Shown: positions 18,337-34,323, counted from the stretch's first letter. The stretch: DNA of 64,000 nt from Candidatus Avigastranaerophilus sp. (GCA_045599645.1 JAZRWI010000080.1:15735-79734), one strand, 5' to 3'. The notes: generated by a model not told the origin, from the letters alone. Program-made: numbers and translations.

Positions 18337-19334
18337 TTCTTATCACCTCCATTAGCAGCGCTGAACGCATTCAATGGCAGAAGGCTGGTTACGCCGTTAG
18401 CTTCATCAACTACAGTAACTTCCTTGATATATGGGAATACCTTTTCGATGGTTTCCAGATACAATCTGGTTCTGGTTACATTCTGATACTTTTTGTATTC
18501 TTCGTAGACAGAAAGGAATCTCTTTGCTTCGCCTTCTGCTTTATTAACACGTTCCAAAGCATAACCTTCAGCCTCCTGAATAGTCTTTTTGGCTTCACCC
18601 TTTGCCTTTGGTACCTGATTATTATATTGTTCTCTGGCTTTCTGAATAAGACTTTCCTTTTGCTGTTCTGCTTCATTTACTGCATTAAAAGCAGTCTTTA
18701 CACTTGCAGGTGGATTAACATCCTGGAATTTTACAGTTACAATATGAACACCTATATCATAGCTATCAAGGATGCTTTGAATTTCTTTGTGGATCATATC
18801 TGCAAGAACAGCACGTTCAGTGGTAAGAACATCACTGACGTTAGCATTGCCGATTATTTTTCTTGTAGATGCTTCAGCAACGTCTCTTATAGTAGAAACC
18901 GGGTCTTTAATATTGAACAAATATTTATAAGCATCGCAAACCTGGTATTGAACAATCCATTCAAGGTCACTGACATTTAAATCACCAGTGAGAACCAGAG
19001 ATTCATCGTCGAACTTTTGACTCGAATATGTTGTTCTACCACTTGAATTGGCAGTTCTGAAACCGAATTCTTCCTTTAAAATACGTTCAGTTTTTACAAG
19101 AAAAACTTCATCTATACCAAAAGGCAACTTCATATGAAGACCTGAGGTTTCCAGAGAATTGAATTTCCCAAGGCGCAGAACTACTGCGCTTTCTTCTGTA
19201 TCAACAGTATAAAAACATGCTGAAATTGTGATTAATACAAATACTACAACCACAAGCCAAGCATATTTAGCCCATAAGGACATGACGCCAACGATTTTTG
19301 CGTCTTCTGGCTTTTTGTTATTTTTCATAACCAA
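18333..19334 (-). CDS. hflK: SPFH/band-7 protein HflK
   Basis: N-terminal TM helix, SPFH domain and a C-terminal coiled coil. First gene of the minus-strand operon. Confidence 0.8.
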   Translation of the reverse strand: MVMKNNKKPEDAKIVGVMSLWAKYAWLVVVVFVLITISACFYTVDTEESAVVLRLGKFNSLETSGLHMKLPFGIDEVFLVKTERILKEEFGFRTANSSGRTTYSSQKFDDESLVLTGDLNVSDLEWIVQYQVCDAYKYLFNIKDPVSTIRDVAEASTRKIIGNANVSDVLTTERAVLADMIHKEIQSILDSYDIGVHIVTVKFQDVNPPASVKTAFNAVNEAEQQKESLIQKAREQYNNQVPKAKGEAKKTIQEAEGYALERVNKAEGEAKRFLSVYEEYKKYQNVTRTRLYLETIEKVFPYIKEVTVVDEANGVTSLLPLNAFSAANGGDKK

Positions 19335-19380
19335 CTCCGCTTTCAGATATAATTACAACATTTTAACAAAACCCTACTCT

Positions 19381-19407
19381 TTTGTCACATTATTTTAAGG
19401 TGACAAA
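19381..19407. promoter_or_regulatory. Perfect 8-bp inverted repeat TTTGTCAC-N11-GTGACAAA in the hflK / xerC divergent intergenic region
   Basis: Read directly from the sequence. Candidate operator for a dimeric regulator. Confidence 0.35.
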
Positions 19408-19505
19408 ATCCATAAAAACTATTTTTTTGGGGGGCTTGTACGGGGTCGGACATTGTGGTATTTTTATAAGAACGTACACCATTATTTGAAAAGAGGGAAT
19501 CAATT

Positions 19506-20411
19506 TTGTTTATAAAAGAGCTTATAGAGCAGTATTTAAGTTCTTTAGGGAAAGAACGGAACCTGTCACCTCAAACTATCAGAGGCTATCAGAATGACCT
19601 CAATTTTTTCGAACAGTGGTTGACCGCCAACAATATTAACGAAATAAGCAAAGCGGAAGCTCTCACACCAACCCAAATACGTGGTTTCTGGGCTGGTCGC
19701 AGAAAAGGCGGCTTATGTGCTGCCAGCATGCGAAGAGGACAATCTGCTTTACGCGGCCTATTCAAGTATGCCATGCGTCACGGTCTGGCAAATAAGAATC
19801 CAGTCGACATGATGGATTCTCCGAAGGTACAGCGTCCATTACCCAAAGCTCTCAGTCAGGAAGACGTGAATATGCTTCTAAATTCACCAGACTCCACTAC
19901 CCTTTTGGGAATGCGAGACAAAGCCATCTTAGAATTGCTTTACGGAAGCGGACTCCGTGTTTCAGAAGTTTCCAATTTAACCTCTGAAAACATCAACCTT
20001 GAAGCTCAGACTGTAATAGTAAGAGAAGGCAAAGGCGGCAAAGACAGAGTCGTTCCACTGACTCCTCTTTCCTGCCAGGCTATTTCTCTTTATATAAACA
20101 ATAGATTTTCCACAAAGCCGGAATGGCGCGAAGAAAAGCACATATTCCTGAACCACCTTGGCACACCTCTGACAACCAGAAGCATCGCCAGATTAATAGA
20201 TAAGTATGCGAGACAGCTGGCAATGATGATGAATATAACACCTCATCAGTTCAGACACAGCTTCGCCACTCACCTATTAAACAATGGCGCCGATATCAGA
20301 GCAGTCCAGGAAATGCTTGGACACGCAAGTCTCTCAACCACACAGATTTATACCCGTATAAGCAAGGAAAAGCTTCTACAGACCTATAGATCCTGTCACC
20401 CGAGAGCTTAA
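19506..20411 (+). CDS. Tyrosine site-specific recombinase XerC/XerD family
   Basis: C-terminal catalytic region RHSFATHLLNNGADIRAVQEMLGHASLSTTQIYTRI with R..H..R..Y residues. Located immediately upstream of flgB as in Firmicute codV-...-flgB synteny. Confidence 0.85.
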   Translation: MFIKELIEQYLSSLGKERNLSPQTIRGYQNDLNFFEQWLTANNINEISKAEALTPTQIRGFWAGRRKGGLCAASMRRGQSALRGLFKYAMRHGLANKNPVDMMDSPKVQRPLPKALSQEDVNMLLNSPDSTTLLGMRDKAILELLYGSGLRVSEVSNLTSENINLEAQTVIVREGKGGKDRVVPLTPLSCQAISLYINNRFSTKPEWREEKHIFLNHLGTPLTTRSIARLIDKYARQLAMMMNITPHQFRHSFATHLLNNGADIRAVQEMLGHASLSTTQIYTRISKEKLLQTYRSCHPRA

Positions 20412-20465
20412 GAAGACCTTTTTGAGATTATTTTCCAGAGATAACTACAAAAACAAAATATTTAC

Positions 20466-20493
20466 TAAATGTTTGTTAGATAGTTGTCGATAT
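20466..20493 (+). promoter_or_regulatory. Candidate sigma-28 (FliA/SigD)-type promoter for the flgB operon: TAAA-N16-GTCGATAT
   Basis: Compared by eye with the TAAA-N15-GCCGATAT consensus. It lies ~35 nt upstream of the flgB RBS (GGGAG). Confidence 0.35.
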
Positions 20494-20526
20494 TTATAGA
20501 AGAATAGAAAACAGGGAGTAAAGATT

Positions 20527-20949
20527 ATGTTTGAAAGACTGACTGGGACTGCGACTTTTAACCTTCTCGGCAAGGGTCTTGATGTTGCTGCAAAACGCAA
20601 CGCCGTTATATCCAACAATATCGCTAACGTAAACACTCCCTTATTCAAGCGACAGATTGTTACATTTGAAGATGAAATGGCAAAGGTTTTCGATGGCCAC
20701 GTAGACATTACCGGCCGCAGAGAAGACGACCGCCATATTCCCATAGGCGAAATCGATTACATGAACATTGGTCCTACAACAATCAAAGATCGTATCCATA
20801 TTATGAGAAACGACAAGAACAATGTAGATATCGATGTAGAAATGTCAGATTTGGCCAAGAACACAATGACCTATCAGATTCACGCTAATAGATTGGCTCA
20901 GATGTTTTCACAGCTAAACGATGTTATAAGTAGAGGTGCTAAGTCCTGA
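20527..20949 (+). CDS. flgB: Flagellar basal-body rod protein FlgB
   Basis: N-terminal SNNIANVNTPLFKRQ rod-protein motif, in flagellar operon context. Confidence 0.85.
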   Translation: MFERLTGTATFNLLGKGLDVAAKRNAVISNNIANVNTPLFKRQIVTFEDEMAKVFDGHVDITGRREDDRHIPIGEIDYMNIGPTTIKDRIHIMRNDKNNVDIDVEMSDLAKNTMTYQIHANRLAQMFSQLNDVISRGAKS

Positions 20950-21389
20950 TGAGTATGTTCAGAAGTATTGATATTTCAGCTAGTGGTCTTACAGCAGAAC
21001 GTCTACGCATGGATGTTATTTCAAACAACATCGCTAACGTAAACACTACCAGAACAGCAGACGGTGGTCCTTTCAGAAGAAAGATGGCCATTTTTGAAGC
21101 CCGTCATCATTACGGCCAGCGCGCATACCAGGATAGAATCAATCCTCAGGAACCAGGCCGCGGCGTTAGAGTTAATGCCATTATGGATGATATGACTCCA
21201 TTCAAGCTCGAATACGATCCAAGTCATCCAGATGCTGACCCAGATGGCTATGTAAGAAGACCAAACATTGATATCGTTCACGAAATGGTTGATATGATTA
21301 CAGCCACTCGTGCATACGAAGCCAATGTTACCTGCATCAGTTCTTCTAAGGACATAACCAATGCAGCTCTCAACATCAGTTCCAAGTAA
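20949..21389 (+). CDS. flgC: Flagellar basal-body rod protein FlgC
   Basis: SNNIANVNTTRT motif and C-terminal rod domain TATRAYEAN. Confidence 0.85.
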   Translation: MSMFRSIDISASGLTAERLRMDVISNNIANVNTTRTADGGPFRRKMAIFEARHHYGQRAYQDRINPQEPGRGVRVNAIMDDMTPFKLEYDPSHPDADPDGYVRRPNIDIVHEMVDMITATRAYEANVTCISSSKDITNAALNISSK

Positions 21390-21436
21390 TTAGCAGATAT
21401 TATAGATTATAGATAAAATAAGTTAGGGTAAACAAA

Positions 21437-21739
21437 ATGAGAATTAACGAAAACCATCCGTTGCATGGCGTTTTGAGTGATAAGCCCAGACGACCTTCCA
21501 CCAACGCAAAAGAGCAATGGGGCTCTTTTCTTGATACTTTACAAACCGCTATTGGTGAAGTAGACACTTTGGGCAAAGAATCAGAAAAACTCACACAAGA
21601 CGCAGTATTGGGCAGAGTTGAAAACTTGCATGACGTTATGATTGCTGCCGAAAAGGCTAAGACCGCCATGAACCTCACTATTGAAGTTCGCGGAAAGGTT
21701 TTGGAAGCCTATAAGGAAGTAATGCGCATGAATTTTTAA
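21437..21739 (+). CDS. fliE: Flagellar hook-basal body protein FliE
   Basis: 100 aa with a C-terminal ...VRGKVLEAYKEVMRMNF FliE signature. Confidence 0.8.
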   Translation: MRINENHPLHGVLSDKPRRPSTNAKEQWGSFLDTLQTAIGEVDTLGKESEKLTQDAVLGRVENLHDVMIAAEKAKTAMNLTIEVRGKVLEAYKEVMRMNF

Positions 21740-21861
21740 TTAGGCTCTTTACATATTTAGCTAGGTGTACTATAAATAAATAGATAATATAACAAACAGC
21801 TCCTGTAAAAAAATTATACATAGAACAAATCCACAGGAGTAAATTAGGGAGTGCAAGCAAA

Positions 21862-23760
21862 ATGAACGATTACCTCAGGCAACTGTGGGAACCGATTTCA
21901 AAGCTGACCAAAAAACAGCTCATTATTTTAGGGAGCGTTGTTGGTCTCGTTGTCATCGGCATTATCACAGCCACGATGTGGGGCACAGAAAAAGAGTATG
22001 TTCCTCTTTTCAAGGAACAATTGAAACTGGAAGACGCCAGTAAAATAGACGCTAAGCTTACCGAATTAGGCTTAGACCACAAAATTGGTTCAACCGCCAA
22101 TGAAATACTTGTTCCACTTACAGATAAAAGTAATGTATTGCTCAAGCTTGCCGAAGAAAAACTACTTCCTGAAGCCGATGCCGGTTGGAAGGAACTTGTT
22201 GATAACCGCTCCCTATTTCAAGGCACTACCCAGCAGGAATTCGACCTCAATTTTGTAAGAGGTCTCCAGGTTGAATTAGAAAAAACCTTAAAGAGAATGG
22301 ACCCTATCGAAGATGCAAGGGTCACCATTGTTAAGCCTAAAAAGCAGGTATTTGCAGAAGACCAGAAGGAATCCTCTGCAAGCGTAGTTATTAAGCTTAA
22401 ACCAGGCATGGTTGTAGACCAGAACCAGATCAGAGCTATCAGAGATTTAATCTGCTCTGCAGTTGAAGGACTTGAACCAGGCAATGTTAAGATTTCAGAC
22501 ACAACAGCCAGAGACTTAACCAGAATCATCGAAGATGAAGAATTAATGAGCCTGGATAAAGCCAAAACCATCCAGATGAGACTTACCAGAGACAATGAAA
22601 AGCATCTCAAGGGCAAGCTCCAGAGCATGCTTGAACAGATTCTCGGTGATGGTAAGGCTATTGTAAGCGTAAGTCTTGAAATGGACTTTGACCAGAAGGA
22701 AGCAGTCAGTGACGTAGTAGTTCCTCCAGAAGGTCTGGACCACGGTATTACAATTTCTGAAAAAACAGAAAGCGAACAATACGAAGGCCGCGATTTGATT
22801 GAAGACGGCGAACCAGGCGTAAACTCCAACCTTCCTCCAGGATCACCGGCATACCCTGGAACAGAAAATGGTGTATTAAACAAATACAAGCGTGACGGTG
22901 TAATTAAGAACTATGAAGTCACCAAATCAAAGGAAAAATTCGTTAAAGAGCAGGGCACAATCAAGCGTATGACTGCCTCGGTCATTATTGATGGCGACCC
23001 TGCAGAATATAAATCTATTGAAGACCAGATTCTTGCTATTGCTCAGACCGCCATTGGTTATAACAAACTACGTGGCGATAAAATGACCCTCTTAGTATAT
23101 AAATTCAGAAATGAAGATCTTGAACGCGCAAGACTTGAAATGGAAAATGAGAAGGAGCGGGAAAAACAAATGTTTATGATTATTATGGGACTGCTTTGTG
23201 GCTTCCCAATACTTCTCGGTATCATCTTTATGGTAGCCAGAATATCCAGAATGCGAGCTATGGTTCAAGAACAGAAGCGTCTTGAAGCCGCTGCAGCTGA
23301 AGCTGAAAGAATCCGTAAAGAAAGAGAAAAAGCTCTCCTTGAACAGAATGAACGCCAGTGGAAGGAATATGAACGTCGTTTCAGCGATACTAGAAACTGG
23401 TTCCCGGAAATCAAGGACGAAATGGAAAAGAAACGCAAGGTTCAGGACCTCAAGTTGGAAGCATGCAAATATGCTGCTGAACATGATGGTCTTCCAGCCG
23501 ATTTCGAAGAAATGTGCCCGGAAGAAAAATATGCTTATCGTGAAGCATTCCAGAAGAAGGCAGATGGTAAACTCGAAGACGAAATCAAGAGACTTGAAGA
23601 CATTATTGCTAAGCGCAATGCTGACAGACAGGATGAACTCAATAGTCTTGAAGCAGCTGCTAATGCTCGTGATGCTCTTGAAAAGCGTATCAGAGACCTT
23701 ATTACCGAACAGCCTGAAAATGCAATTCAGGTTATCAAGACCATGATTAACAGCAAATAA
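21862..23760 (+). CDS. fliF: Flagellar M-ring protein FliF (with extended K/E-rich coiled-coil C-terminus)
   Basis: N-terminal TM helix, periplasmic ring domains, a second TM at ~res 440-460, then ~170 aa of charged coiled coil. Confidence 0.85.
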   Translation: MNDYLRQLWEPISKLTKKQLIILGSVVGLVVIGIITATMWGTEKEYVPLFKEQLKLEDASKIDAKLTELGLDHKIGSTANEILVPLTDKSNVLLKLAEEKLLPEADAGWKELVDNRSLFQGTTQQEFDLNFVRGLQVELEKTLKRMDPIEDARVTIVKPKKQVFAEDQKESSASVVIKLKPGMVVDQNQIRAIRDLICSAVEGLEPGNVKISDTTARDLTRIIEDEELMSLDKAKTIQMRLTRDNEKHLKGKLQSMLEQILGDGKAIVSVSLEMDFDQKEAVSDVVVPPEGLDHGITISEKTESEQYEGRDLIEDGEPGVNSNLPPGSPAYPGTENGVLNKYKRDGVIKNYEVTKSKEKFVKEQGTIKRMTASVIIDGDPAEYKSIEDQILAIAQTAIGYNKLRGDKMTLLVYKFRNEDLERARLEMENEKEREKQMFMIIMGLLCGFPILLGIIFMVARISRMRAMVQEQKRLEAAAAEAERIRKEREKALLEQNERQWKEYERRFSDTRNWFPEIKDEMEKKRKVQDLKLEACKYAAEHDGLPADFEEMCPEEKYAYREAFQKKADGKLEDEIKRLEDIIAKRNADRQDELNSLEAAANARDALEKRIRDLITEQPENAIQVIKTMINSK

Positions 23761-23775
23761 TTGGAGCGCATATAA

Positions 23776-24831
23776 ATGAACGAAACTCAGTTGGCAGAAC
23801 AAGCGATAATCAAGCCGGAAGATTATCCACCACTAACTATTCCTGGCAAAGCCAAGGCGGCTATCTTACTTGTTTTCTTAGGTCCTGAAACAAGTGGTCC
23901 TATCATGCAGGCCCTTACAGATCAGGAAATAGAAACAATTACTATTGAAATTGCAAAACAAAGAAAGGTTTCTACAGAAGAAAAGCTTTCTGTTCTGCTT
24001 GAGTTTGAATCATTGTTCATGGCCAGGAAGTTTTATGCTGAAGGTGGTCTCGAAACCGCTAAGCGCTTGCTTGAAAAAACCGTTGGTCCCGGTAAAGCTT
24101 TGGAAATTCTTGCTAAAATGGGTACTTCATTACAGCTCCAACCATTTGAAGCAGCAAGAACTGCCGACCCAAGCCAATTGGCAACCCTTATTCAGAATGA
24201 ACAACCACAGCTTATTGCTATGATTATGGCTTATTTGCAGCCAGAAAAAGCAGCTGTTGTATTGCAGTCCATGGACCACGATACTCAGTTGGAAATAGCT
24301 AAGCGTCTAGCTCTTATGGATAAAACAAGTCCTGAAATCACACGTGAAGTCGAAAACTTCCTGGAAGAAAAGCTTTCTTCTATCGTTGGTCAGGACCTCA
24401 CATCTGTTGGTGGTATCGATACTGTCATCAGAGTATTGAATGCAGTAGACCGTTCTACCGAAAAGAACATCATCGAAACAATGGAAGTTCAGGAACCTGT
24501 TCTTGCCGAAGAAATCAAGAAGAAGATGTTCGTATTCGAAGACGTTGTTCTCATCGACGACCGCGGTTTGCAGCGCCTCTTCAAGGAAATCGACCAGAAA
24601 GACCTTTCTATCGCACTCAAGGGCGTTACAGACGAAGTCAAGGAAAAATTCTACAAGAATATGTCCAAGCGTGCAGCAGAAATGCTCAAGGAAGATATGG
24701 CCTACATGGGCGCAGTTCGTATGCGCGACGTAGACCAGGCTCAGCAGCGTATCGTCCAGTTGGTCAAGAAGCTGGAAGCCAAGGGCGAAATTATTGTAGC
24801 AAGACCAGGCGAGGAGGAAATGATTGGTTAA
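23776..24831 (+). CDS. fliG: Flagellar motor switch protein FliG
   Basis: 351 aa with FliG N/M/C domains and a C-terminal torque helix region (...MRDVDQAQQRIVQLVKKLE...). Confidence 0.85.
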   Translation: MNETQLAEQAIIKPEDYPPLTIPGKAKAAILLVFLGPETSGPIMQALTDQEIETITIEIAKQRKVSTEEKLSVLLEFESLFMARKFYAEGGLETAKRLLEKTVGPGKALEILAKMGTSLQLQPFEAARTADPSQLATLIQNEQPQLIAMIMAYLQPEKAAVVLQSMDHDTQLEIAKRLALMDKTSPEITREVENFLEEKLSSIVGQDLTSVGGIDTVIRVLNAVDRSTEKNIIETMEVQEPVLAEEIKKKMFVFEDVVLIDDRGLQRLFKEIDQKDLSIALKGVTDEVKEKFYKNMSKRAAEMLKEDMAYMGAVRMRDVDQAQQRIVQLVKKLEAKGEIIVARPGEEEMIG

Positions 24832-25273
24832 CCGAACTAGAAAAACGAATATCCTTGCAGATATTCTACAATTTTGTGATACAGAAACTCAGACCCGTCT
24901 GGTTACAGGCCTTACCCCAATTCTGAAAAAAGAAAACCGCTTAGATATTCTTCAGGAATTGAAAAACAAGATAGTTCTTTTTGAAGATTTGGCTTATGCC
25001 AATAGCTCAGGCGTAGCCATGCTTCTTAAGTATGTTACAATCCAGGACCTTGCCATGGCTTTTCATGGTGCCCCAGATGCTGTTGTAACCAATATAGCCC
25101 AGTCAATGTCCAAAAATATGTTCAGTGACCTCAAGGAAGAAATTGCTCTTCGCAAAAAAGCCACTAAGACAGACATTAACAATGCAAGAGAAAGAATACT
25201 TAAAGAAGTAAGACAGCTTATCAGTGAAAATCGTCTCTATATTGAAAAACCTGACGAAACCATGATTTATTAA
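24824..25273 (+). CDS. Stand-alone FliG C-terminal-domain-like protein (FliG_C paralog), apparent TTG start overlapping fliG stop
   Basis: IVLFEDLAYANSSGVAMLLKYVTIQDLAMAFHGAPDAVVTNIAQSMSKNMFSDLKEEIALRKKATKTDINNARERILKEVRQL aligns by eye with FliG MFVFEDVVLIDDRGLQRLFKEIDQKDLSIALKGVTDEVKEKFYKNMSKRAAEMLKEDMAYMGAVRMRDVDQAQQRIVQLVKKL. Confidence 0.5.
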   Translation: MVNRTRKTNILADILQFCDTETQTRLVTGLTPILKKENRLDILQELKNKIVLFEDLAYANSSGVAMLLKYVTIQDLAMAFHGAPDAVVTNIAQSMSKNMFSDLKEEIALRKKATKTDINNARERILKEVRQLISENRLYIEKPDETMIY

Positions 25274-25288
25274 AGGTAAAGCCAAGAC

Positions 25289-26419
25289 ATGTTTAGAATA
25301 TTAAAAGCCAGCCAAGTAAAAGCAGTCGAAAATCCATTTTCCGTTGACAATGGTCAAAAGGTTGAAAAACCTAAGGAACCGGATATCGACCCAAATGAAG
25401 ATGCTTTTGCTTCAGAAGCTTTTCAATTACTTTCTGGCGAAGAATTAGCCGGTGGACAAAAGATTTCAACAAAGAAACCCGCTAATCAGGCTCCAGATTC
25501 AAATCAAGCAGAATCAGACGCTTCAGCTGCACCTGAAGAAAAAACACCACCCAGGAAAGATGATGATTCTTTTCTTTCCCAGGCTGCAAGAAAATCAAGA
25601 CATGCCGCAGTTCTTGAAAAGCTTAAAATCAAAGAGCTTGAATTAGAAGCCCTTGAAGAAGAGCTTAGAGAATGGGAAGCACGTCTACAGCAGCAGGAAA
25701 GTGAATTATTACAGAAAGAACAGGAACTTTCCAAAGCTAATATTGAAAAGCGCCAGCAGATTGAAGCCGAATGTCAGCAAACCTTGAAAATGGCTAAGGA
25801 AGCAGCTGAATCAGTAAAAGCCGCTGCCAGGAATGAAGCTGAAACAATCAAAAAACAAGCTAAGATTGAAGTTGATTCAGTTAGAGAAAGCGCTTATAAA
25901 GAAGGCTTCGATTCAGGCGAAGAAAAAGGTCTTGCCCAAGGCGAAGCTGAAGGCCTGAAGGAAATAGAAATCGACTGGAAGAATATGATGAACGAATCAG
26001 AAATGATAGTCAATGAGCTTCAATCCAGCCGTATGGGTCTATTAAAAGCCTCAGAAGAAGAAATGCTCAGACTTGTAATAAGCTTTGCCAAGACTGTTCT
26101 TAAGGTTGAACCAACAGTTAACCAGGAAATCATCCTGAAAAACATTGATGAAGCCCTTAACAATATTATTGACGTTGATAAGGTTGTCATGCGCATAAAC
26201 CTTCGCGATAAAGCAATGTGCGAAGCTCACAAGGAAAGACTTCTTTCAAGACTTGGTAATATTTCAGAACTTCGCATAGTAGAAGACCCAAGCCTTAGCG
26301 CAGGTGGTGTAAAAATTGAAACTGGTGTAGGCACTATTGACGCAACTCTTGAAACTCAGGCAAGAGCCTTAGAAAGAGCTCTTTTAAACAAATTTGAAAG
26401 TTCAATGACTGGTTCATAA
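25289..26419 (+). CDS. fliH: Flagellar export apparatus protein FliH (long Pro/Ala/Glu-rich N-terminal extension)
   Basis: C-terminal FliH domain ending ...GGVKIETGVGTIDATLETQARALERAL, with coiled-coil middle. Positioned between fliG and fliI. Confidence 0.7.
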   Translation: MFRILKASQVKAVENPFSVDNGQKVEKPKEPDIDPNEDAFASEAFQLLSGEELAGGQKISTKKPANQAPDSNQAESDASAAPEEKTPPRKDDDSFLSQAARKSRHAAVLEKLKIKELELEALEEELREWEARLQQQESELLQKEQELSKANIEKRQQIEAECQQTLKMAKEAAESVKAAARNEAETIKKQAKIEVDSVRESAYKEGFDSGEEKGLAQGEAEGLKEIEIDWKNMMNESEMIVNELQSSRMGLLKASEEEMLRLVISFAKTVLKVEPTVNQEIILKNIDEALNNIIDVDKVVMRINLRDKAMCEAHKERLLSRLGNISELRIVEDPSLSAGGVKIETGVGTIDATLETQARALERALLNKFESSMTGS

Positions 26420-26421
26420 TC

Positions 26422-27735
26422 ATGGGTTTTGCTTTTTCTGACTATACAAACGTTATTGAAAATACAAATACAATCAGGGTTAACGGCCGCGTCACCCAGG
26501 TTGTAGGTCTCCTTATTGAAGCAACAGGCCCACAGAATCCAGTAGGTGACGTCTGCAATATCATAACTCCTAATGGTCCTCTTCCCTGTGAAATCGTAGG
26601 CTTCAGAAAAGATAGTGTTCTTTTAATGCCTTTGATTCATACAGAAGGAATCAGAAAAGGAGCAGAAGTAGTTCCTACAGGCCAGCCTTTAACCGCTCCG
26701 GCCGGTGATGAACTGCTTGGCAGATTATTGGACGGTTTAGGTAATCCAATTGACGAAAAGGGCGAATTTTCAGCCAGCATCCATAGAGTTCCACTTAACC
26801 GTGAACCACCTAACCCATTTACAAGAAAAAGAATTCTTGAACCAATGCCAACAGGTGTTAAGGTTCTTGACGGACTTCTTACCATAGGTAACGGCCAGAG
26901 ACTTGGTATTTTTGCAGGCTCTGGTGTTGGTAAAAGTACTTTACTAGGCATGATAAGCCGAACATCTAAGGCTGATGTAAACGTTCTAGCACTCATAGGT
27001 GAACGTGGTCGTGAAGTCAGAGAATTTTTGGAAAAAGACCTTGGGCCGGAAGGCATGAAGCGTTCCGTTATCGTTGTTGCAACATCTGACCAGCCTGCAC
27101 TCGTTAGAATTAAAGCTGCTTTTACAGCTACAGCTATCGCAGAATATTTCAGAGATCAGGGCAAAAACGTAATGCTGATGATGGATTCAGTAACTCGTTT
27201 TGCATTGGCACAGCGCGAAGTTGGTCTTGCAACCGGTGAACCACCTGCCACACGTGGTTACACCCCATCTGTTTTTGCTATGCTTCCAAAGCTGCTAGAA
27301 CGAGCAGGGACATCTCTCAAAGGTGCTATCACAGGCATTTATACAGTTCTTGTAGAAGGCGGTGACATGGACGAACCAGTTGCCGACGCCGTAAGAGGTA
27401 TTCTTGACGGTCACCTTATTCTCAGCCGTGACCTTGCTCATCAGAACATTTATCCTGCAATTGATATTCTGAGCAGTATTTCACGTCTTATGAACGAAAT
27501 AGCAGATAAGAATCATCTCGCCAATGCTGGTAAGCTGCGCAACATATATTCAACCTATATGAAAAATGTTGACGCCATTACACTTGGTGCTTATAAAGCT
27601 GGTTCTGACCCACGTATTGACGAAGCAATCAAAAAACAGCCTCTTATCGAAGCTTTTATAAAACAAGGAATTAACGAAGCTTGTCCATTCGAAGCCTCTG
27701 TTGCTGAAATAGCAAAAATAGCAGGCGGAAAGTGA
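26422..27735 (+). CDS. fliI: Flagellum-specific ATP synthase FliI
   Basis: Walker A GSGVGKST, Walker B MLMMDSVTRF. Overall F1/T3SS ATPase pattern. Confidence 0.9.
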   Translation: MGFAFSDYTNVIENTNTIRVNGRVTQVVGLLIEATGPQNPVGDVCNIITPNGPLPCEIVGFRKDSVLLMPLIHTEGIRKGAEVVPTGQPLTAPAGDELLGRLLDGLGNPIDEKGEFSASIHRVPLNREPPNPFTRKRILEPMPTGVKVLDGLLTIGNGQRLGIFAGSGVGKSTLLGMISRTSKADVNVLALIGERGREVREFLEKDLGPEGMKRSVIVVATSDQPALVRIKAAFTATAIAEYFRDQGKNVMLMMDSVTRFALAQREVGLATGEPPATRGYTPSVFAMLPKLLERAGTSLKGAITGIYTVLVEGGDMDEPVADAVRGILDGHLILSRDLAHQNIYPAIDILSSISRLMNEIADKNHLANAGKLRNIYSTYMKNVDAITLGAYKAGSDPRIDEAIKKQPLIEAFIKQGINEACPFEASVAEIAKIAGGK

Positions 27736-27744
27736 TAATCTGAA

Positions 27745-28197
27745 ATGGCATTTGAATTCAAATTGCGTCAGCTATTGCAGATAGCACTTCATGAAGAAAA
27801 TGAAGTGAAAAATCGTCTTGCCAAAAAAGACGCTCAAATAGCTGAGCTTGCAACTAAAATTCAAAGCTTTAAGGATCAGCAGACTCAGGCGCTTGCTGAG
27901 CAGCAGCAGGCAATGTTTTCCGGAGACCTGATGAAGGTTCAGATGTATCCGCCTTACATACAGTCATTGAAAAAATCAGAAGATTTTTACACCAATGAAA
28001 TGCAGCTTCAGCAGAAGCAACGTGCAAAGATAATGGCCGAATACGTTGAAAAGCAACGAAAACGAAAAACCTTCGAAAAGATGGAGGAAGTTGACAGAGC
28101 CAAATACATTAAGCAGATGCAGAAAAAGGAACAGGCCAGATTAGACGAATTTGGTGGAAGAAAAAGAAATACATTAATGGAGCCAGACAATGCTTGA
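27745..28197 (+). CDS. fliJ: Flagellar export protein FliJ (coiled-coil)
   Basis: 150-aa all-helical charged protein directly after fliI. Confidence 0.6.
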   Translation: MAFEFKLRQLLQIALHEENEVKNRLAKKDAQIAELATKIQSFKDQQTQALAEQQQAMFSGDLMKVQMYPPYIQSLKKSEDFYTNEMQLQQKQRAKIMAEYVEKQRKRKTFEKMEEVDRAKYIKQMQKKEQARLDEFGGRKRNTLMEPDNA

Positions 28198-28774
28198 AAA
28201 TATGAACAGACTTCTCGAAAAGATGGACGCTCTTAACAAGAGCCTCAGCATCTATGCCCCAAAGCATAATAGAAAAGCCAACAATGTTGATTTTCAAGCT
28301 CAGCTTGAAAAAGCCCAGAAAGGTCAGAATCTTTCATCCTGTTCACCGGCCACCACTGTAGAGAACGCTAATGATGTCCAATTCGCCAAGAATCTTAATG
28401 AAGAAGTTCAAGGTCTCATCGAAAAGTATTCAAAGGAATACAACGTTGACCCAGACCTCGTAAAGCAACTTATAACAGTAGCCTCAGGGAATAATCCCCA
28501 AGCTGTTGGCTCTAATGGTAACGTTGGCCTTATGCAGCTCAATCCATCTCTTTTAAGCACATATGGTATAACCAATCCATTTGATCCGGCCCAGAACATT
28601 TCCGCAGGAACTCAGCATCTTTCACAGTTGCTACAGAACAACAACGGAAACCTGCCGTTAGCTCTTGCCTCCTATAATACTGATCCATTAACAGTTAAGC
28701 GATTTGGTGGCGTTCCACCATACTTAGAAACCCAGAACTTTGTTAACCAGATTTTATCTGGCTTAGGCAAATAA
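28190..28774 (+). CDS. SLT (lytic transglycosylase) domain protein, flagellar operon-embedded; expected catalytic Glu appears replaced by Ala
   Basis: SLT-family motifs GNVGLMQLNP and ALASYNTDPLTVKRFGGVPPYLETQNFVNQIL. Position equivalent to the ES motif reads VASGNNP. 8-nt overlap with fliJ. Confidence 0.55.
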   Translation: MLENMNRLLEKMDALNKSLSIYAPKHNRKANNVDFQAQLEKAQKGQNLSSCSPATTVENANDVQFAKNLNEEVQGLIEKYSKEYNVDPDLVKQLITVASGNNPQAVGSNGNVGLMQLNPSLLSTYGITNPFDPAQNISAGTQHLSQLLQNNNGNLPLALASYNTDPLTVKRFGGVPPYLETQNFVNQILSGLGK

Positions 28775-28790
28775 ATAGAGGAAATCCAAA

Positions 28791-29726
28791 ATGCCTGATA
28801 ATAGACCCGACAACAAACCGGCTAACAATAAACAAGCAGAAGAAACTCAGCAATATAACGAAGAAGAACTGAATACTCCCGAAACACGGGAAGAACAGCA
28901 GGAAAGCTATAGAGAACCTTCCCCACTATTCAAGTTCTTCAGTACCATCTTCTATATTTTTTTACTTATCGCTGTAGGTATTGCATTAGTATTATTGCTC
29001 TTTTCTCTTGATTTTCTTAATATTTATACCTTCAGAAACAGCATTCCTGAATCTCTTAGAAAAGGCTGGCCTCTGGAAGCCTATTATGAATTCGTAAAGC
29101 TTCATCAGCTCCCTGAAGAAGAACGATATCAGCAGATGATGCATATAGAAAAAGACCGTTATAATCAGCTAATGAGCGACGGGAACAAGAGTCTTGAAGA
29201 CCGTGCAAAGGCTTTGGAAGAATCCTACAGAGCCTTAATCAGAACACAGAAAGAACAAAATAAATTAGACCAGGAAGCTATCCGTAAGAAACAGGAAGAG
29301 CTTGCACTGCAACAAAAAAAGCTTGAAGACAGTCTGGCTGACCTTGAAAAACGTAAGGCCGCTATTGATGATTTATCTAACCGTCTGGCTTCTGAAGCCA
29401 TGAATATAGAATCAAGCCTTATCAGATTTATGGAAAAAGAAAATAGACTTGATCAGGTTTGTGCAATTGCTGCTCAAATGGAACCCAAAGCTCTTGCCAG
29501 AGTATTTGACGAAGTTCCTGATGACCAGTTGATTTATGACATCATGGGCGGACTTCAGCCAAGTCATTCAGCAAAAACACTTGCCAATATGGACCCTGAA
29601 AAAGCAGGTAAGATTATGAAAATAAGCAACAATGCTCTGACATTACCTCCTCCAGGTCCATCAAGAAGCTATGTTCCTCAGTCTCTCACCAATCTGATAG
29701 ACGAAACTCAAGCCAATCGAAGATAA
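28791..29726 (+). CDS. MgtE-N/FliG-like domain flagellar protein (YlxF/MotE-like) with N-terminal TM helix and coiled coil
   Basis: C-terminal LDQVCAIAAQMEPKALARVFDEVPDDQLIYDIMGGLQPSHSAKTLANMDPEKAGKIMKI resembles the MgtE intracellular N domain. Its position after fliJ matches Bacillus ylxF. Confidence 0.5.
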   Translation: MPDNRPDNKPANNKQAEETQQYNEEELNTPETREEQQESYREPSPLFKFFSTIFYIFLLIAVGIALVLLLFSLDFLNIYTFRNSIPESLRKGWPLEAYYEFVKLHQLPEEERYQQMMHIEKDRYNQLMSDGNKSLEDRAKALEESYRALIRTQKEQNKLDQEAIRKKQEELALQQKKLEDSLADLEKRKAAIDDLSNRLASEAMNIESSLIRFMEKENRLDQVCAIAAQMEPKALARVFDEVPDDQLIYDIMGGLQPSHSAKTLANMDPEKAGKIMKISNNALTLPPPGPSRSYVPQSLTNLIDETQANRR

Positions 29727-29740
29727 TACAACGTAAATAA

Positions 29741-29772
29741 AAAGCCCTGGCTAATTGCCAGGGCTTTTTATT
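29741..29772. terminator. Bidirectional rho-independent terminator (AAAAAGCCCTGGCTAATTGCCAGGGCTTTTTAT) closing the flagellar operon and the convergent minus-strand lipoprotein operon
   Basis: Perfect GC-rich stem GCCCTGGC/GCCAGGGC, flanked by an A-run on one side and a T-run on the other. Confidence 0.8.
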
Positions 29773-29786
29773 TACGTTGTATTTGC

Positions 29787-30302
29787 TTACTGCAAGCTTG
29801 CTAACTGCTGATTGATTTCTTCAGATTCCAGCTTACTACTTCTTGTTGCCTGAAGAACACGCTGTCTCAGATTAGCGTAGAACAACTGCTTGTCTTCCGG
29901 GCTGTCTTCGATGATTACCTTAGGTGGTTCAATCATTGCAAAATCCTTGCTAGCACCGTAGAATCCATCGTCATCGCTTTCATGGAATAAAACAGTCATT
30001 GCTACATCAGAACGGTTTTCAAGATTTTCAACAATCTTTTCAGCCATTTCATCGCTCATAGGAATTTCTGCAACTGGTAAAATGCTTTCATCTGCTCTGT
30101 CCAAGATTAAATCAACTGCTTCTTCTTCACAGATAAGCTTTTCTTCTTCATCAGAATAAGTTCTGTGCTGAAACTGTTTAAGTCTTTCCTGAAGAGATTT
30201 AATCCTCAAATTCATGCTGTCTGTGCTGGAAATATCAGCATAAGCATTGCTACAGCACAGGCACAGGAATGCCATTCCCAGACTAAGAGCCAATTTACGC
30301 AT
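29787..30302 (-). CDS. Secreted acidic hypothetical protein
   Basis: Start placed at the ATG at 30302 (MRKLALSLGMAFLCLCCSNAYA signal peptide; GGAGG RBS at 30311-30315). Last gene of the beta-helix lipoprotein operon. Confidence 0.45.
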   Translation of the reverse strand: MRKLALSLGMAFLCLCCSNAYADISSTDSMNLRIKSLQERLKQFQHRTYSDEEEKLICEEEAVDLILDRADESILPVAEIPMSDEMAEKIVENLENRSDVAMTVLFHESDDDGFYGASKDFAMIEPPKVIIEDSPEDKQLFYANLRQRVLQATRSSKLESEEINQQLASLQ

Positions 30303-30376
30303 TATTTCTACCTCCGTCGACAAATAAAGTGTTCTATTACTTAATTCATCGGCATAAACAGGTGCTTTTATTAGTA

Positions 30377-32347
30377 TTATTCAGCACCATAAGCGCCAAT
30401 CTGGCCTTTATTTGAAGCTACATCAAGAAGTGGTGACCCGCTCTGCAGATGATAATCATATACATTCCCAATTTTTCCTTCGAACATTGGATCGACATTA
30501 TGTATCGGTGCACCGCTCTGAGTGCAATTGACTGTAGCTGTCTTAAAACCAAAAATATTATTATATGGGAAAGCAATACCGGAAGAATACATGTCTTCAA
30601 TACCATTACCGCTTCCGCTACTAGCCATATTCACAATAATGTTATTCTGGACTTTTGCGTCCATAGCTCCTTCAAGCTGAATTCCGTTAAGGGCATCAAT
30701 AGTCAGAAACTGTGCATCACAATTATCACCGCTTATTTCAAGACCCTTGGCAAGAGAATTGATAACACCGTTTCTTATTCTTGTATCAGCCTTGTCAAAA
30801 GCCTGAACTCCAGCCTTTTTGCAATTTCTAACATCAAAATAATTAAGTGTCAGACCTGTGTTGTTATTAAGAATAATGCCTACATCACAGCCTTCAGCCT
30901 TTACATCTGAAATATTACAATAATATGTATTTTCTACATTTATACCTGTTTCACAATCTTCTGTATAAATTCCAGAAATAGCTGTTCCACTAGCTGTAAT
31001 CAATGCAAAACCGGTTTTACAATATCTGGCTTTTACATTATCAATTTTCAGGTTACTGCTATAAAGCTTAAGCCCTGTATTTGCACCTGATATAACAACA
31101 TTACTGAACAAGCTTTCGTTTTCACCTATTCCAGCCATGAATCTTATGCCATCCCAGTCATTGTTCTGAGGTGTTGAGGACTGTGAAAGGAATTGAATTG
31201 GTTCTGCTTCGGTGCCACGGGCAATAATAACTCCTTCAACTACGAATTCACAGAGACTGTTTTTAAAAGTGTTATCCTTATTGCCATCAGTAAAGAATCT
31301 GATGCTAGTGCCAGGTTCAATAGTCAAAGTATATCTTGAAGGAATCGTAATATCACCACCCAAACTAATCGGGCTCCATTCCTTTTTCCAGACAATATCT
31401 TCATGGATTGTTCCTGTAGGAACAAAGCTTCTTACAGCAGGCAATTCAGAGAGATTACCTTCATAATCTACTGCATAAAGATTATAGGTATAATAGCGGC
31501 CTGGAGAAACCAGATCGTCAACAACAGACAACTGGCTGCTGAACATGTCGTTTTCATCTCTTAAAAGAGCGAGCTTTCCACCGTTTTCACTGCGATAAAT
31601 TCTAAATCCCCTGATTGGATCCGCACCGGCATATTGCCAAGAGAGCTGAGGACCATATATCGTCTGAGTAATATTGAAATCAATAGGAGTATCTGGCGCC
31701 CCTTCGATATCATACATGCTTACAGTCTTAAAGCTTGACTGTTCTGTAGTAAAGGTGCGGCCGTCAGATGTAGTTCCTGTTACAGAAAAATAATAGGTTG
31801 AATCAGGATAAAGATTATTAAGTGTAATTCTATGCTGAGTAGCTTTTGCATCTGGTGTTGTAGTGCTTGGCATATTGCTTAATTCGCGATATGTAACCGA
31901 AACACTCATTTCTTCATGACAATTAATATCAAGAACAACACTTGTTTTTTCCTTTACTGCAACATTAGCCTTTATCATCTTTTCCATGCTATCAACAACG
32001 ATTGTAACGTCATTAATAACCTGACCATACCCTAATTCTATTGTTGCAGAGCCAAGATAAAATCCGTCACGTTCGACTGTTAAATTATGATGTCCTTCAT
32101 CTAATGAAGTAAACATGAAACGGCCCATTTCATCTGTTTCAGCTTTGTAAAGAGAACGATTTGATGTAATTATTGCTCCGGAGACAGCTAGTTTATTAGA
32201 ATCAATAACAATGCCAGATACGCTGCCACGCTGAGTATCAAGAACATGATCCTCGTCTCTTACACAGCCAACAGTGAAAATAATAAATAAGGAAACAACG
32301 AATATGAGTATGTTTCTTATCCAAAGCTTAGTATTTTCGTTTCTCAT
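30377..32347 (-). CDS. Surface lipoprotein paralog 1: CarboxypepD_reg-like + FN3-like + right-handed parallel beta-helix repeats
   Basis: Lipobox FTVGC. N-terminal SGIVIDSNKLAVSGAIITSN (carboxypeptidase-regulatory-like beta-sandwich), then multiple PbH1-type repeats. Conserved C-terminal DP.F...Y.Y.L...SP motif shared with the two paralogs. Confidence 0.55.
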   Translation of the reverse strand: MRNENTKLWIRNILIFVVSLFIIFTVGCVRDEDHVLDTQRGSVSGIVIDSNKLAVSGAIITSNRSLYKAETDEMGRFMFTSLDEGHHNLTVERDGFYLGSATIELGYGQVINDVTIVVDSMEKMIKANVAVKEKTSVVLDINCHEEMSVSVTYRELSNMPSTTTPDAKATQHRITLNNLYPDSTYYFSVTGTTSDGRTFTTEQSSFKTVSMYDIEGAPDTPIDFNITQTIYGPQLSWQYAGADPIRGFRIYRSENGGKLALLRDENDMFSSQLSVVDDLVSPGRYYTYNLYAVDYEGNLSELPAVRSFVPTGTIHEDIVWKKEWSPISLGGDITIPSRYTLTIEPGTSIRFFTDGNKDNTFKNSLCEFVVEGVIIARGTEAEPIQFLSQSSTPQNNDWDGIRFMAGIGENESLFSNVVISGANTGLKLYSSNLKIDNVKARYCKTGFALITASGTAISGIYTEDCETGINVENTYYCNISDVKAEGCDVGIILNNNTGLTLNYFDVRNCKKAGVQAFDKADTRIRNGVINSLAKGLEISGDNCDAQFLTIDALNGIQLEGAMDAKVQNNIIVNMASSGSGNGIEDMYSSGIAFPYNNIFGFKTATVNCTQSGAPIHNVDPMFEGKIGNVYDYHLQSGSPLLDVASNKGQIGAYGAE

Positions 32348-34323
32348 TTCCTTGTTACCCCATATCTACCAAGTTCAAGTCCGAATTCATCGTTTATACG
32401 GCAGAGAGAAGATTCACTAAGATTGTAATCATATGGACTTCCACCGACAAAAGCTGGATCCAGAGCCACTGATAATGTTCCAACATCGCAGCCATAAACA
32501 GCATTCGCAAAGCCATAAATATCGTTATAGCAGTAGGTTGGATACTGGCTTTCATTCATATATGCAATACCAGTTGCACCGGCATTGGAGGTATTAGTGA
32601 AAATATTGTTAGTCAGGTAGAGAGAACCAGTAGCAATAATCAAGGCTCTATCAGCATCAACAGTAACATGGTCTATTATATTGCCACCATCATTCCTGAG
32701 GATATTAGTGTAATTGATACCTTCTGGACTGACTACGAGGGTATTTGTAATAATGCTATTTGCAAAGGTTCCTCTTATACCCGTATTGTATGCATAAATA
32801 TCTGTATTACGGATGAATGTCTGGTCATAAATGCTATCTGTGAAGTTTTCAAGACCAACAGAGGTATTTGTTATTCTTGAATTCTTCAAAGTCATATGGA
32901 AACATTTATTGATTGAAACTGCTACTGATGAAATATCATCAAAATAACAATTTTCAAGTTCAACAGCCTGAGTTACCCCTTCAAAGCGTAAGCCGCCAAC
33001 GGAATGCTTAACAGTAATGCCACTTACAGCAACATTTACAGATTTAACATTAATAGTATAGCCACTGCAGCCAAAAATTTCTGCATTCCTGATAGCTGAA
33101 ATACCTGTCTGAGAAGAAAGAATTGTAATTCCAGCCCAGTGTTCACGTTTACCTGAACCATCAAGAGGACTGAAAATAACCGGTTCAGCTTCTGTGCCAT
33201 TAACAGTGAGTGAGCCATGAACCAGTATTTCTACTCTATCTGTATCAAAGCCAGATTTGAAGGAATCATTTTCGCTGATCTGGAATTCTGTTCCAGCTTC
33301 AACAGTCATATTGACACCCATGGGAACAATAAGGTCTGCTGTTATCTTTACAGGAGAATCCAGTTTACTTATGTTAATATCGTTCTTAACTACGCCAGGA
33401 ACGAAAACTAAGTCAGAGACCATCTTATCAGATTCAGCACCTACATTGTTTACAGCAGTAACTGCATAACGGCAGAAAACACCTGTTTCTGCTTCCACAT
33501 CGCTGTAACTGCAACCCTTAGTAATAACTGTTCCGTTGCAACGAACCCAGGCACCGCCCTTTTTCTGGCGATAAACATTATAGCCTGCAACAGAAAGCTT
33601 TGTTTCAGGAGCAGTCCAGGTCAAAGGCACTACACCAAGCTCAGTCATATCTGCTATCTTTATAGAAGATGGCTTATATGGCGCTTCGCCACTGGCAGTT
33701 CTAAAAGTATAATCGAAGGAAGAATAACTATTAGAAAATTCATCAAGATATTGAATCTTGAAATGATATACAGTTTCTGGGGTTAGACCGGTTAAGAGGT
33801 AATAATGTATTTTATTTGGGCGTTCTTCTGCAACATAGCTACCATAGCTCATATCTTTGCCATAATGGATGTTACAGCAGATATCCTTGTAGGTCTGCCA
33901 ATTAATTTCAACAGTAGTTGATGAAACCTGGCCAATAACAACTTTAGAAATTCTGTTACTGGCGCTCAAGCGGTCTAATCGGATAAAATCAACTTTTGTT
34001 TCCTGATCAGATTTTACTTCAGACTGATACTGTTCAAGCGCAAAATCGCTGTGCTGAATAATAATATTATTAAGGCCAGCAGGGAGTTCTGGCAGTCTGA
34101 AAGAACCGTCCAGACCGGAATAAACAATCTGGTCATCTGCAAACAGAGAAAAACATTTTGCATTAATTACTGCGTCGCCTTTTTCATCGATTAATCTGCT
34201 GCTAAAGCTGCCAGTATTGGACTGACGGCTTCCACAGCCTGTAAGCAGAGCAGTTAATAGCAAAACTGCCAGCAAAAAAGCTGGCACTATTTTCCTTCTG
34301 TCAATTTGGAACATCTTCTGCAC
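32344..34323 (-). CDS. Surface lipoprotein paralog 2 (same architecture)
   Basis: Lipobox LLTGC. 4-nt overlap with paralog 1. Beta-helix repeats and C-terminal DPAFVGGSPYDYNLSESS. Confidence 0.55.
   Translation of the reverse strand: MQKMFQIDRRKIVPAFLLAVLLLTALLTGCGSRQSNTGSFSSRLIDEKGDAVINAKCFSLFADDQIVYSGLDGSFRLPELPAGLNNIIIQHSDFALEQYQSEVKSDQETKVDFIRLDRLSASNRISKVVIGQVSSTTVEINWQTYKDICCNIHYGKDMSYGSYVAEERPNKIHYYLLTGLTPETVYHFKIQYLDEFSNSYSSFDYTFRTASGEAPYKPSSIKIADMTELGVVPLTWTAPETKLSVAGYNVYRQKKGGAWVRCNGTVITKGCSYSDVEAETGVFCRYAVTAVNNVGAESDKMVSDLVFVPGVVKNDINISKLDSPVKITADLIVPMGVNMTVEAGTEFQISENDSFKSGFDTDRVEILVHGSLTVNGTEAEPVIFSPLDGSGKREHWAGITILSSQTGISAIRNAEIFGCSGYTINVKSVNVAVSGITVKHSVGGLRFEGVTQAVELENCYFDDISSVAVSINKCFHMTLKNSRITNTSVGLENFTDSIYDQTFIRNTDIYAYNTGIRGTFANSIITNTLVVSPEGINYTNILRNDGGNIIDHVTVDADRALIIATGSLYLTNNIFTNTSNAGATGIAYMNESQYPTYCYNDIYGFANAVYGCDVGTLSVALDPAFVGGSPYDYNLSESSLCRINDEFGLELGRYGVTRK

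Follow-up and report, generated by a model that had tools for sequence, protein, structure and literature searches.

The C-terminal domain of FliG, a protein of the flagellar rotor, is encoded a second time, as a free-standing copy, between fliG and fliH in a 64,000-nucleotide stretch of DNA recorded as Candidatus Avigastranaerophilus sp. (GCA_045599645.1, JAZRWI010000080.1:15735-79734), the whole of which is called the window here, with positions counted from its first letter. The open reading frame (ORF), to which we give the name X, has been maintained as an intact gene in related genomes and appears to be translated from signals located at the very end of fliG. Its product may be an accessory subunit of the rotor, a reading that is put forward tentatively and weighed below against several others.

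24824-25273, + strand: X, stand-alone FliG C-terminal-domain paralog of 149 amino acids (aa), supported by Pfam FliG_C, PDB sequence matches, an AlphaFold2 (AF2) model and the ratio of non-synonymous to synonymous substitution rates (dN/dS)

An earlier note on this DNA had described a 149-aa ORF at these positions, beginning with TTG and overlapping the fliG stop codon, had likened it residue for residue to the C-terminal domain of the upstream FliG, and had held that the N and M domains are absent from it. These claims were borne out. The TTG start codon is located at 24824-24826, and the overlap with fliG amounts to 8 nucleotides (nt). The Pfam FliG_C profile (PF01706) matched X with 63.6 bits (E 2.5e-17), thus passing the gathering cut-off of 23.3, over residues 39-138, which correspond to profile positions 7-106 of 108, while no Pfam match to FliG_N or FliG_M was found in X. 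A BLASTP comparison with the upstream FliG rendered a gapless alignment of 102 aa (FliG residues 245-346) with 29% identity and an E value of 1e-14. The alignment with solved FliG structures begins earlier than the Pfam match, at residue 12 (T. maritima FliG MC 96-99, Salmonella FliG 200), and X therefore spans ARM_C as well as the C-terminal helical bundle. In a family alignment, residue 1 of X falls near Salmonella FliG 186-193, at the Gly-Gly hinge that precedes ARM_C, and the counterpart of the whole of X in Salmonella FliG runs from approximately residue 193 to residue 331. The C-ring structure of the Salmonella protein assigns residues 196-233 to D4 (ARM_C) and 243-331 to D5 (PMC11087270). 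By alignment, X is equal to FliG D4 (ARM_C) plus the hinge plus D5, the torque-helix bundle.

X failed on the full-length FliG model TIGR00207 (44.6 bits, cut-off 226.7), of which only profile positions 205-333 were matched. Judged by these profiles, X belongs to the FliG_C domain family but is not a FliG, as it fails the equivalog and two of the three domains are absent. Since the N and M domains are the missing ones, X is unable to bind FliF and has no place for the EHPQR FliM site. The FliG_C domain was found in just two ORFs of the 64-kb window, namely fliG and X. No match to PilZ was found in X at E values up to 1 in Pfam, nor any other sensor or brake-type domain, nor a glycosyltransferase domain. 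Genes of the X family are labelled in databases as 'hypothetical', 'FliG' or 'FliG C-terminal domain-containing protein'.

Conservation of X was followed in 27 loci, 13 of which were reached through X (the window and L001-L013 except L009) and 14 independently through a FliG profile (L018-L031, with FliG at least 75% identical). All of them are of Riflebacteria type, including that of Ca. Ozemobacter and one in a 5.2-Mb contig, and in every one X lies between fliG and fliH as an intact ORF of 146-156 aa, with roughly 36-94% identity. On the other hand, in all eight informative outgroup loci that came out of the FliG-profile scan (FliG at most 43% identical) a Pfam-confirmed fliH directly follows fliG and no second FliG_C ORF is present. 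Compared with the usual fliG-fliH order, X has been inserted, as the earlier note had proposed. In the comparison with the closest relative, L006 (94% aa identity), dN/dS was 0.057 for X, 0.026 for fliG and 0.064 for fliH. Identity within the gut clade is about 65% for X, 87% for FliG and 72% for FliH, so that X changes at a higher rate than FliG and at a somewhat higher one than FliH. Mean pairwise identity across the X family is 0.50 in D4 and 0.51 in D5, the two parts being equally conserved. By these comparative measures, X is a working gene under strong purifying selection. The earlier note had also considered a leftover of a fliG duplication. It could be the case that X is what is left of a partial fliG duplication and is now decaying, or that the ORF is spurious, as a tandem partial copy adjoining its parent gene and starting with a codon other than ATG might suggest, but the low dN/dS and the 27 intact orthologs lead us to reject this explanation, together with a Shine-Dalgarno motif that has been maintained throughout and the monophyly of the family (both described below), and its probability is negligible.

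A word-indexed search rendered 39 clusters of X with 56-89% identity, nearly all of them of 149-152 aa, the window X belonging to the cluster of P0001 at 89% identity. When 1.84 billion representatives were searched exhaustively with HMMER and a second profile search was run, some 45 more distant members of 146-156 aa were added. With the profile of the X family, members reach 155 bits or more, an orphan gets 110, and canonical FliG proteins no more than 80; at the loci, X ORFs received 186-223 bits from the X hidden Markov model, and FliG ORFs 76-121. Every X match that bears an organism name belongs to Candidatus Riflebacteria, including Ca. Ozemobacter sibiricus. A contig scan with peptide patterns specific to the gut clade returned five species, a figure that does not represent a phylum-wide distribution. 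The record closest to the window, L006 (JAZUDR010000012.1), with 98% identity in FliG and 94% in X, bears the title Candidatus Avigastranaerophilus sp., a genus of Melainabacteria, whereas the label of every other relative is Riflebacteria. FliG of L006 shares 78-81% identity with FliG of the Ozemobacter type, and probably either the label of L006 is wrong or the contig has been mis-binned.

The start of X is embedded in the end of fliG, as follows.

24811-24818, + strand: Shine-Dalgarno-like GAGGAGGA in the last fliG codons (Glu-Glu-Glu), read from the sequence
24824-24831, + strand: fliG/X overlap of 8 nt (TTGGTTAA), with the TTG start of X and then the fliG stop, a likely site of translational coupling

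The AGGAGG hexamer (24812-24817) ends 6 nt before the TTG of X, and the stop codon of fliG, TAA, is found at 24829-24831. The same junction was found in the 27 related loci: GAGGAGGA, which is identical in all of them, is followed after 5-6 nt by TTG, then by G-N-T and a stop codon (TAA, TAG or TGA), with an overlap of 8 nt. The flagellar genes of the window use GAA 232 times versus 15 for GAG (94% GAA), and two of the three GAG codons of fliG make up the GAGGAGGA motif. Because those codons persist against such a usage, the data indicate that the Shine-Dalgarno motif is apparently under selection at synonymous sites of fliG. The arrangement shows a gene that is predicted to be made from its own conserved Shine-Dalgarno sequence and from a TTG start overlapping the end of fliG, and from the geometry of the junction we infer that synthesis of X is translationally coupled to the termination of fliG.

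The junction also bears on a different possibility, in which ribosomes would undergo a programmed +1 frameshift at the stop of fliG and produce a FliG-X fusion with two C-terminal domains. X is indeed in the +1 frame of fliG, the Shine-Dalgarno-like motif before the stop is loosely reminiscent of prfB, and single chains in which two FliG_C domains come after FliG_M occur naturally elsewhere. However, the X frame contains a stop codon directly upstream of the TTG in 26 of the 27 loci, which would confine the shift to 8 nt; the Gly codon before the fliG stop varies (GGT, GGC, GGA), so that there is no conserved slippery codon; and the spacing from the motif to the stop is unlike that of the prfB type. 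A fusion of this kind is very improbable, and the upstream stop and the lack of a conserved slippery codon led us to reject it.

The AF2 model of X has nine helices and a predicted local distance difference test score (pLDDT) of 86, and its top PDB matches in Foldseek are FliG only. The best fits of the whole chain were to Salmonella FliG in the clockwise (CW) state, with a root-mean-square deviation (rmsd) of 2.6-3.9 Å and a query-normalised TM-score of 0.70-0.74 (0.73-0.74 for 8wiw and 8umx), the preference of a monomer model for the CW or the counter-clockwise state being given no weight. The rmsd was 1.1-2.6 Å on the isolated C-domain 1qc7, and 1.3 Å over 81 columns on the FliG fragment of the MotAB-FliG complex 8ucs. 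Three parts of the protein were delimited.

24839-24970, + strand: equivalent of ARM_C (FliG D4), X residues 6-49, three helices, from T. maritima and Salmonella alignments and AF2
24971-24982, + strand: degenerate MFXF hinge, X residues 50-53 (I-V-L-F), only the last Phe kept
25097-25150, + strand: torque-helix equivalent, X residues 92-109 (AQSMSKNMFSDLKEEIAL), from the alignment in validated Salmonella FliG numbering

In the D4 part the AF2 helices comprise residues 2-15, 20-36 and 40-49, and the family alignment shows a 5-residue insertion, KKENR, in the ARM_C part of gut-clade X. The hinge, MFxF in canonical FliG, reads [ILM][FL]xF in deep-branching X and [IL][IV]xF in gut-clade X, with F53 invariant. 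For the surface that faces the stator we considered K264, R281, D288, D289 and R297, the contact residues established by E. coli genetics; Salmonella/E. coli FliG numbering was validated in the alignment. At these positions the window X has H81, N98, E105, E106 and T114, respectively, of which H81 and T114 sit outside the torque-helix span (92-109), so that three of the five canonical charges are lost and the acidic pair E105/E106 is left. The full-length FliG proteins of Riflebacteria all have K-R-E/S-D/E-R at the five positions, and the charged ridge of the window FliG is intact (K-R-E-D-R). Many deep-branching X proteins, including those of the Ozemobacter type, have the full set, K-R-D/E-E-R. 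On the tree, the loss of charges (264 to M/I/H, 281 to N, 297 to S/T) corresponds to one derived subclade, to which every gut/rumen sequence and a small number of other sequences belong; the gut clade has N without exception at 281 and nearly always S/T at 297, and despite the charge loss the torque-helix motif MSKNMFxDLKxE is near-invariant as well. Degradation of the hinge runs in the same direction as the loss of charges. The conservation of the charged ridge, to which the earlier note had drawn attention, holds therefore for deep-branching X, and fails at three of the five positions in the subclade of the window.

A protein with a FliG-like torque helix off the rotor could act as a soluble stator-binding factor (a decoy, a brake or a MotA chaperone) that holds back torque or stabilises unincorporated stators. 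The presence in deep-branching X of K264, R281, D/E288, E289 and R297 as in FliG would be in line with this, and so would the retained D5 fold, with the superposition on FliG of 8ucs, and the lack of the domains that anchor FliG to FliF and FliM. We consider it unlikely nonetheless, as the window subclade has been kept under strong purifying selection yet minus three of the five charges, X is constitutively tied to fliG by the 8-nt overlap within a core structural operon, and a decoy would not need an equally conserved ARM_C. Moreover, known brakes and clutches are conditional, whereas X contains neither PilZ nor another sensor domain. The mimic of the rotor-stator interface, with brake- or clutch-like action, that the earlier note had suggested is thus weakened for the window copy, where charges have been lost and the coupling is constitutive, while stator contact is plausible for the ancestral X; a conditional brake or clutch is not favoured.

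The explanation that we prefer, with a confidence somewhat short of even, is that X is an accessory rotor/switch subunit, on the grounds of the retention of ARM_C and the coupling to fliG. X would join the switch complex through its ARM_C, as an accessory subunit of the switch ring made together with FliG, and would supply a second FliG C-domain in trans. In assembled rings, ARM_C stacks on ARM_M (D3) of the neighbouring FliG next to FliM (PMC11087270; PMC7355467), and in free FliG it can stack on ARM_M intramolecularly (PMC7355467). Docking by ARM_C appears as the most plausible route because X starts exactly at the hinge and its ARM_C is as constrained as D5. In deep-branching Riflebacteria, X with all five charges could touch MotA, while in the gut/rumen subclade, including the window, its most likely role would be that of a rotor subunit, structural or regulatory, whose interface has been altered. 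That the complete set of charges was long kept in most lineages suggests that the ancestral X may also have faced MotA. The window X is probably not a canonical torque generator: its clade has lost the positive charges and the helix is still invariant, so that the conserved core function cannot rest on the canonical salt bridges.

Several considerations weigh against X as a rotor subunit. In a closed FliG ring every ARM_M is occupied by the ARM_C of a neighbour, so that the docking site for X is not obvious. The retained ARM_C and hydrophobic positions may reflect fold stability only, and the loss of three charges shows a conserved function that is independent of the canonical MotA salt bridges. 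The conserved TTG may be merely forced by the C-terminal codons of FliG (Ile/Val-Gly). Besides, all the genomes are metagenome-assembled genomes of uncultured organisms and all the evidence is comparative. Another possibility is that of a FliG assembly factor, whose ARM_C would transiently cap the ARM_M of newly made FliG and block premature domain-swap polymerisation until FliF docking, X being absent from the finished motor. Such a role would be consistent with the translational coupling to fliG that is deduced from the junction, with the retention of ARM_C from the hinge onward, and with the established domain-swap model of FliG assembly (PMC7355467). However, a cap would have no use for a conserved D5 or for the full set of charges seen in most lineages, full-length FliG can already cap itself intramolecularly (PMC7355467), and other phyla build FliG rings without a factor of this kind. 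We regard this role as decidedly unlikely.

The rotor-subunit reading can be extended to a Riflebacterial rotor with two classes of stator-facing C-domains, in which X would be a second torque-helix subunit provided in trans and docked on the FliG/FliM ring via ARM_C, one class being able to engage MotA (deep-branching lineages) and the other having been re-purposed, with a re-wired but invariant helix (gut/rumen lineages). In this full form the proposal is doubtful. If true, it would represent the first rotor with the torque-generating domain both in cis and as a separate protein. FliG_C receives the torque of the stator and flips in CW/counter-clockwise switching, and a conserved free copy of it, tied to fliG, would be a new type of accessory component of the motor, derived from the working part of the rotor itself. 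X can also be seen as a natural experiment on how the ARM_C/ARM_M domain-swap assembly tolerates an extra partner, on the evolution of rotor-stator charge pairs, kept in one clade and rewired in another, and on the generation of new motor subunits by partial gene duplication, as FliN from FliM. In addition, it is a simple marker for the flagellar operons of the sampled Riflebacteria-type genomes.

A neighbour-joining tree of 74 X proteins, 57 FliG C-domains from other phyla and six Riflebacterial FliGs rendered X as monophyletic, with 31 of 40 bootstraps on a reduced set. The X family is well separated from canonical FliG. A recent duplication of the organism's own fliG was not supported, since X is no closer to Riflebacterial FliG_C than to that of other phyla; Riflebacterial FliG alone appeared as the sister of X in none of the 40 bootstraps. 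For the same reason the duplication is, as judged from the tree, an old one.

Further stand-alone FliG_C proteins were found outside flagellar operons: P0220 (161 aa, L014 812-1297) and P0051 (158 aa, L015 5001-5477). One of them adjoins a gene for an AMP-binding enzyme, and the other adjoins genes for a dCache sensor and a nucleotide cyclase. Both fall outside the X clade, with 70-110 bits, and such orphan FliG_C domains may serve non-flagellar uses. Metagenomic sequences contain other FliG-derived architectures (P0050, P0055, P0059, P0073, P0074, P0091, P0052, P0065), including FliG_M ahead of two FliG_C domains, in some cases with DUF4116, a protein in which FliG_C occurs four times, and fusion proteins of the FliM-FliG type and, in one case, of the FliF-FliG type. 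In P0050, P0055 and P0059 the best stretch for the X profile is the second FliG_C domain. The tandem proteins were considered as fused (Rosetta-stone) forms of FliG and X, on contigs too short to give context. The orphan and tandem proteins (P0051, P0220; P0050, P0055, P0059, P0074) have in common with X a FliG_C domain outside the canonical FliG architecture, but the tandem ones differ from it in being single chains with DUF4116 and FliG_M.

X is part of a long flagellar operon.

20527-29726, + strand: operon flgB-flgC-fliE-fliF-fliG-X-fliH-fliI-fliJ-SLT-gene for a 311-aa membrane protein, from ORFs, gene gaps and Pfam
23776-24831, + strand: fliG, full-length canonical rotor/switch protein of 351 aa, with matches to FliG_N, FliG_M and FliG_C and 384 bits on TIGR00207 (cut-off 226.7)
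25289-26419, + strand: fliH, Pfam FliH with 89.6 bits, start 15 nt past X

A xerC-like recombinase gene (Pfam XerC) precedes flgB, and a strong bidirectional terminator (29731-29777) marks the end of the operon. No strong terminator was found on the + strand around X, including the region between fliG and X, and no Rfam family was found within 19000-31000. The rest of the 64-kb window contains housekeeping genes only, with neither motA/motB nor fliM/fliN among them. The gene layout upstream of flgB differs among relatives: xerC is directly followed by flgB in the window (19506-20527) and in gut/rumen relatives, whereas hslV-hslU lies between both in environmental relatives (L011, L012, L013), similarly to the Bacillus codV-clpQ-clpY layout. 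In L013, a thymidylate kinase gene is inserted between fliE and fliF.

The FliF protein is 632-634 aa long in the window (21862-23760) and in L001, L004 and L011-L013, and in those genomes some 170 aa are added at its cytoplasmic C-terminus, an extension with many Lys and Glu residues that is coiled-coil-like and hints at an unusual link from the MS-ring to the C-ring in X-carrying motors. The SLT lytic-transglycosylase gene (28190-28774, + strand) overlaps the end of fliJ by 8 nt and keeps its position in all related loci; its product is probably a peptidoglycan hydrolase dedicated to the flagellum. The last gene of the operon (28791-29726, + strand) encodes a protein of 311 aa with an N-terminal transmembrane segment, a coiled-coil region and no significant Pfam match, whose C-terminal part looks by eye like ARM repeats of the MgtE_N/FliG type, such as those of FlbB or YlxF. 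In most related loci (L001, L003, L004, L011, L013) the SLT gene is followed by a gene for 283-356 aa that has no annotation.

Outside the operon, two genes at 9801-12793 (+ strand) encode an adjacent pair formed by a LuxE-like acyl-protein synthetase and a LuxC-like acyl-CoA reductase, which has the look of a module for making fatty aldehydes in a gut anaerobe. At 30377-36310 the - strand carries three ORFs in a row that are close in length (656, 659 and 669 aa). A scan of one of them showed domains of the types CarboxypepD_reg, fn3 and right-handed beta-helix (NosD-like), and L001 has a similar gene in that position.

A literature search rendered no description of a stand-alone FliG_C protein or of X. 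The sole lead for PF01706, V. cholerae MotV/MotW, and a lead from the Ozemobacter literature, FlgV, turned out to be unrelated to X. The closest known relative is the C-terminal domain of FliG itself (PF01706, D4+D5, C-alpha1-6), to which X is homologous, in its sequence as in its fold, over the length between the Gly-Gly hinge and the C-terminus; deep-branching X share with it the five stator charges and, often, an MFxF-like hinge. X differs from it in being a separate polypeptide that forms its own clade, and in the window X K264, R281 and R297 have been replaced and the first Phe of MFXF has been lost.

Duplicated C-terminal domains are known in other parts of related machines. The C-terminal domain of FliM exists also as a separate protein, FliN, which is encoded just downstream of fliM and co-assembles with FliM, and in injectisomes an extra C-terminal domain of SctQ, SctQ-C, is made from an internal start in the same frame and co-assembles with SctQ. 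X would follow the same logic, that of a free copy of a C-terminal domain encoded at or after the parent gene. However, FliN and SctQ-C have the SPOA fold whereas X is an ARM/helical bundle, X is a separate overlapping gene, and its co-assembly with FliG is a proposed one. Spirochetes have two full-length FliG paralogs, FliG1 and FliG2, with all three domains and encoded apart; as in the case of X, there is a second FliG-derived protein per organism, but X consists of the C-domain only and is fixed beside fliG. Finally, the brakes and clutches YcgR/MotI (PilZ proteins that respond to cyclic di-GMP) and EpsE (encoded in a biofilm operon) act conditionally at the FliG_C-MotA interface, at which a FliG_C mimic such as X could also act. 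Those proteins have unrelated folds and depend on a signal, whereas X appears to be constitutively coupled to fliG and, in the clade of the window, has lost most of the contact charges.

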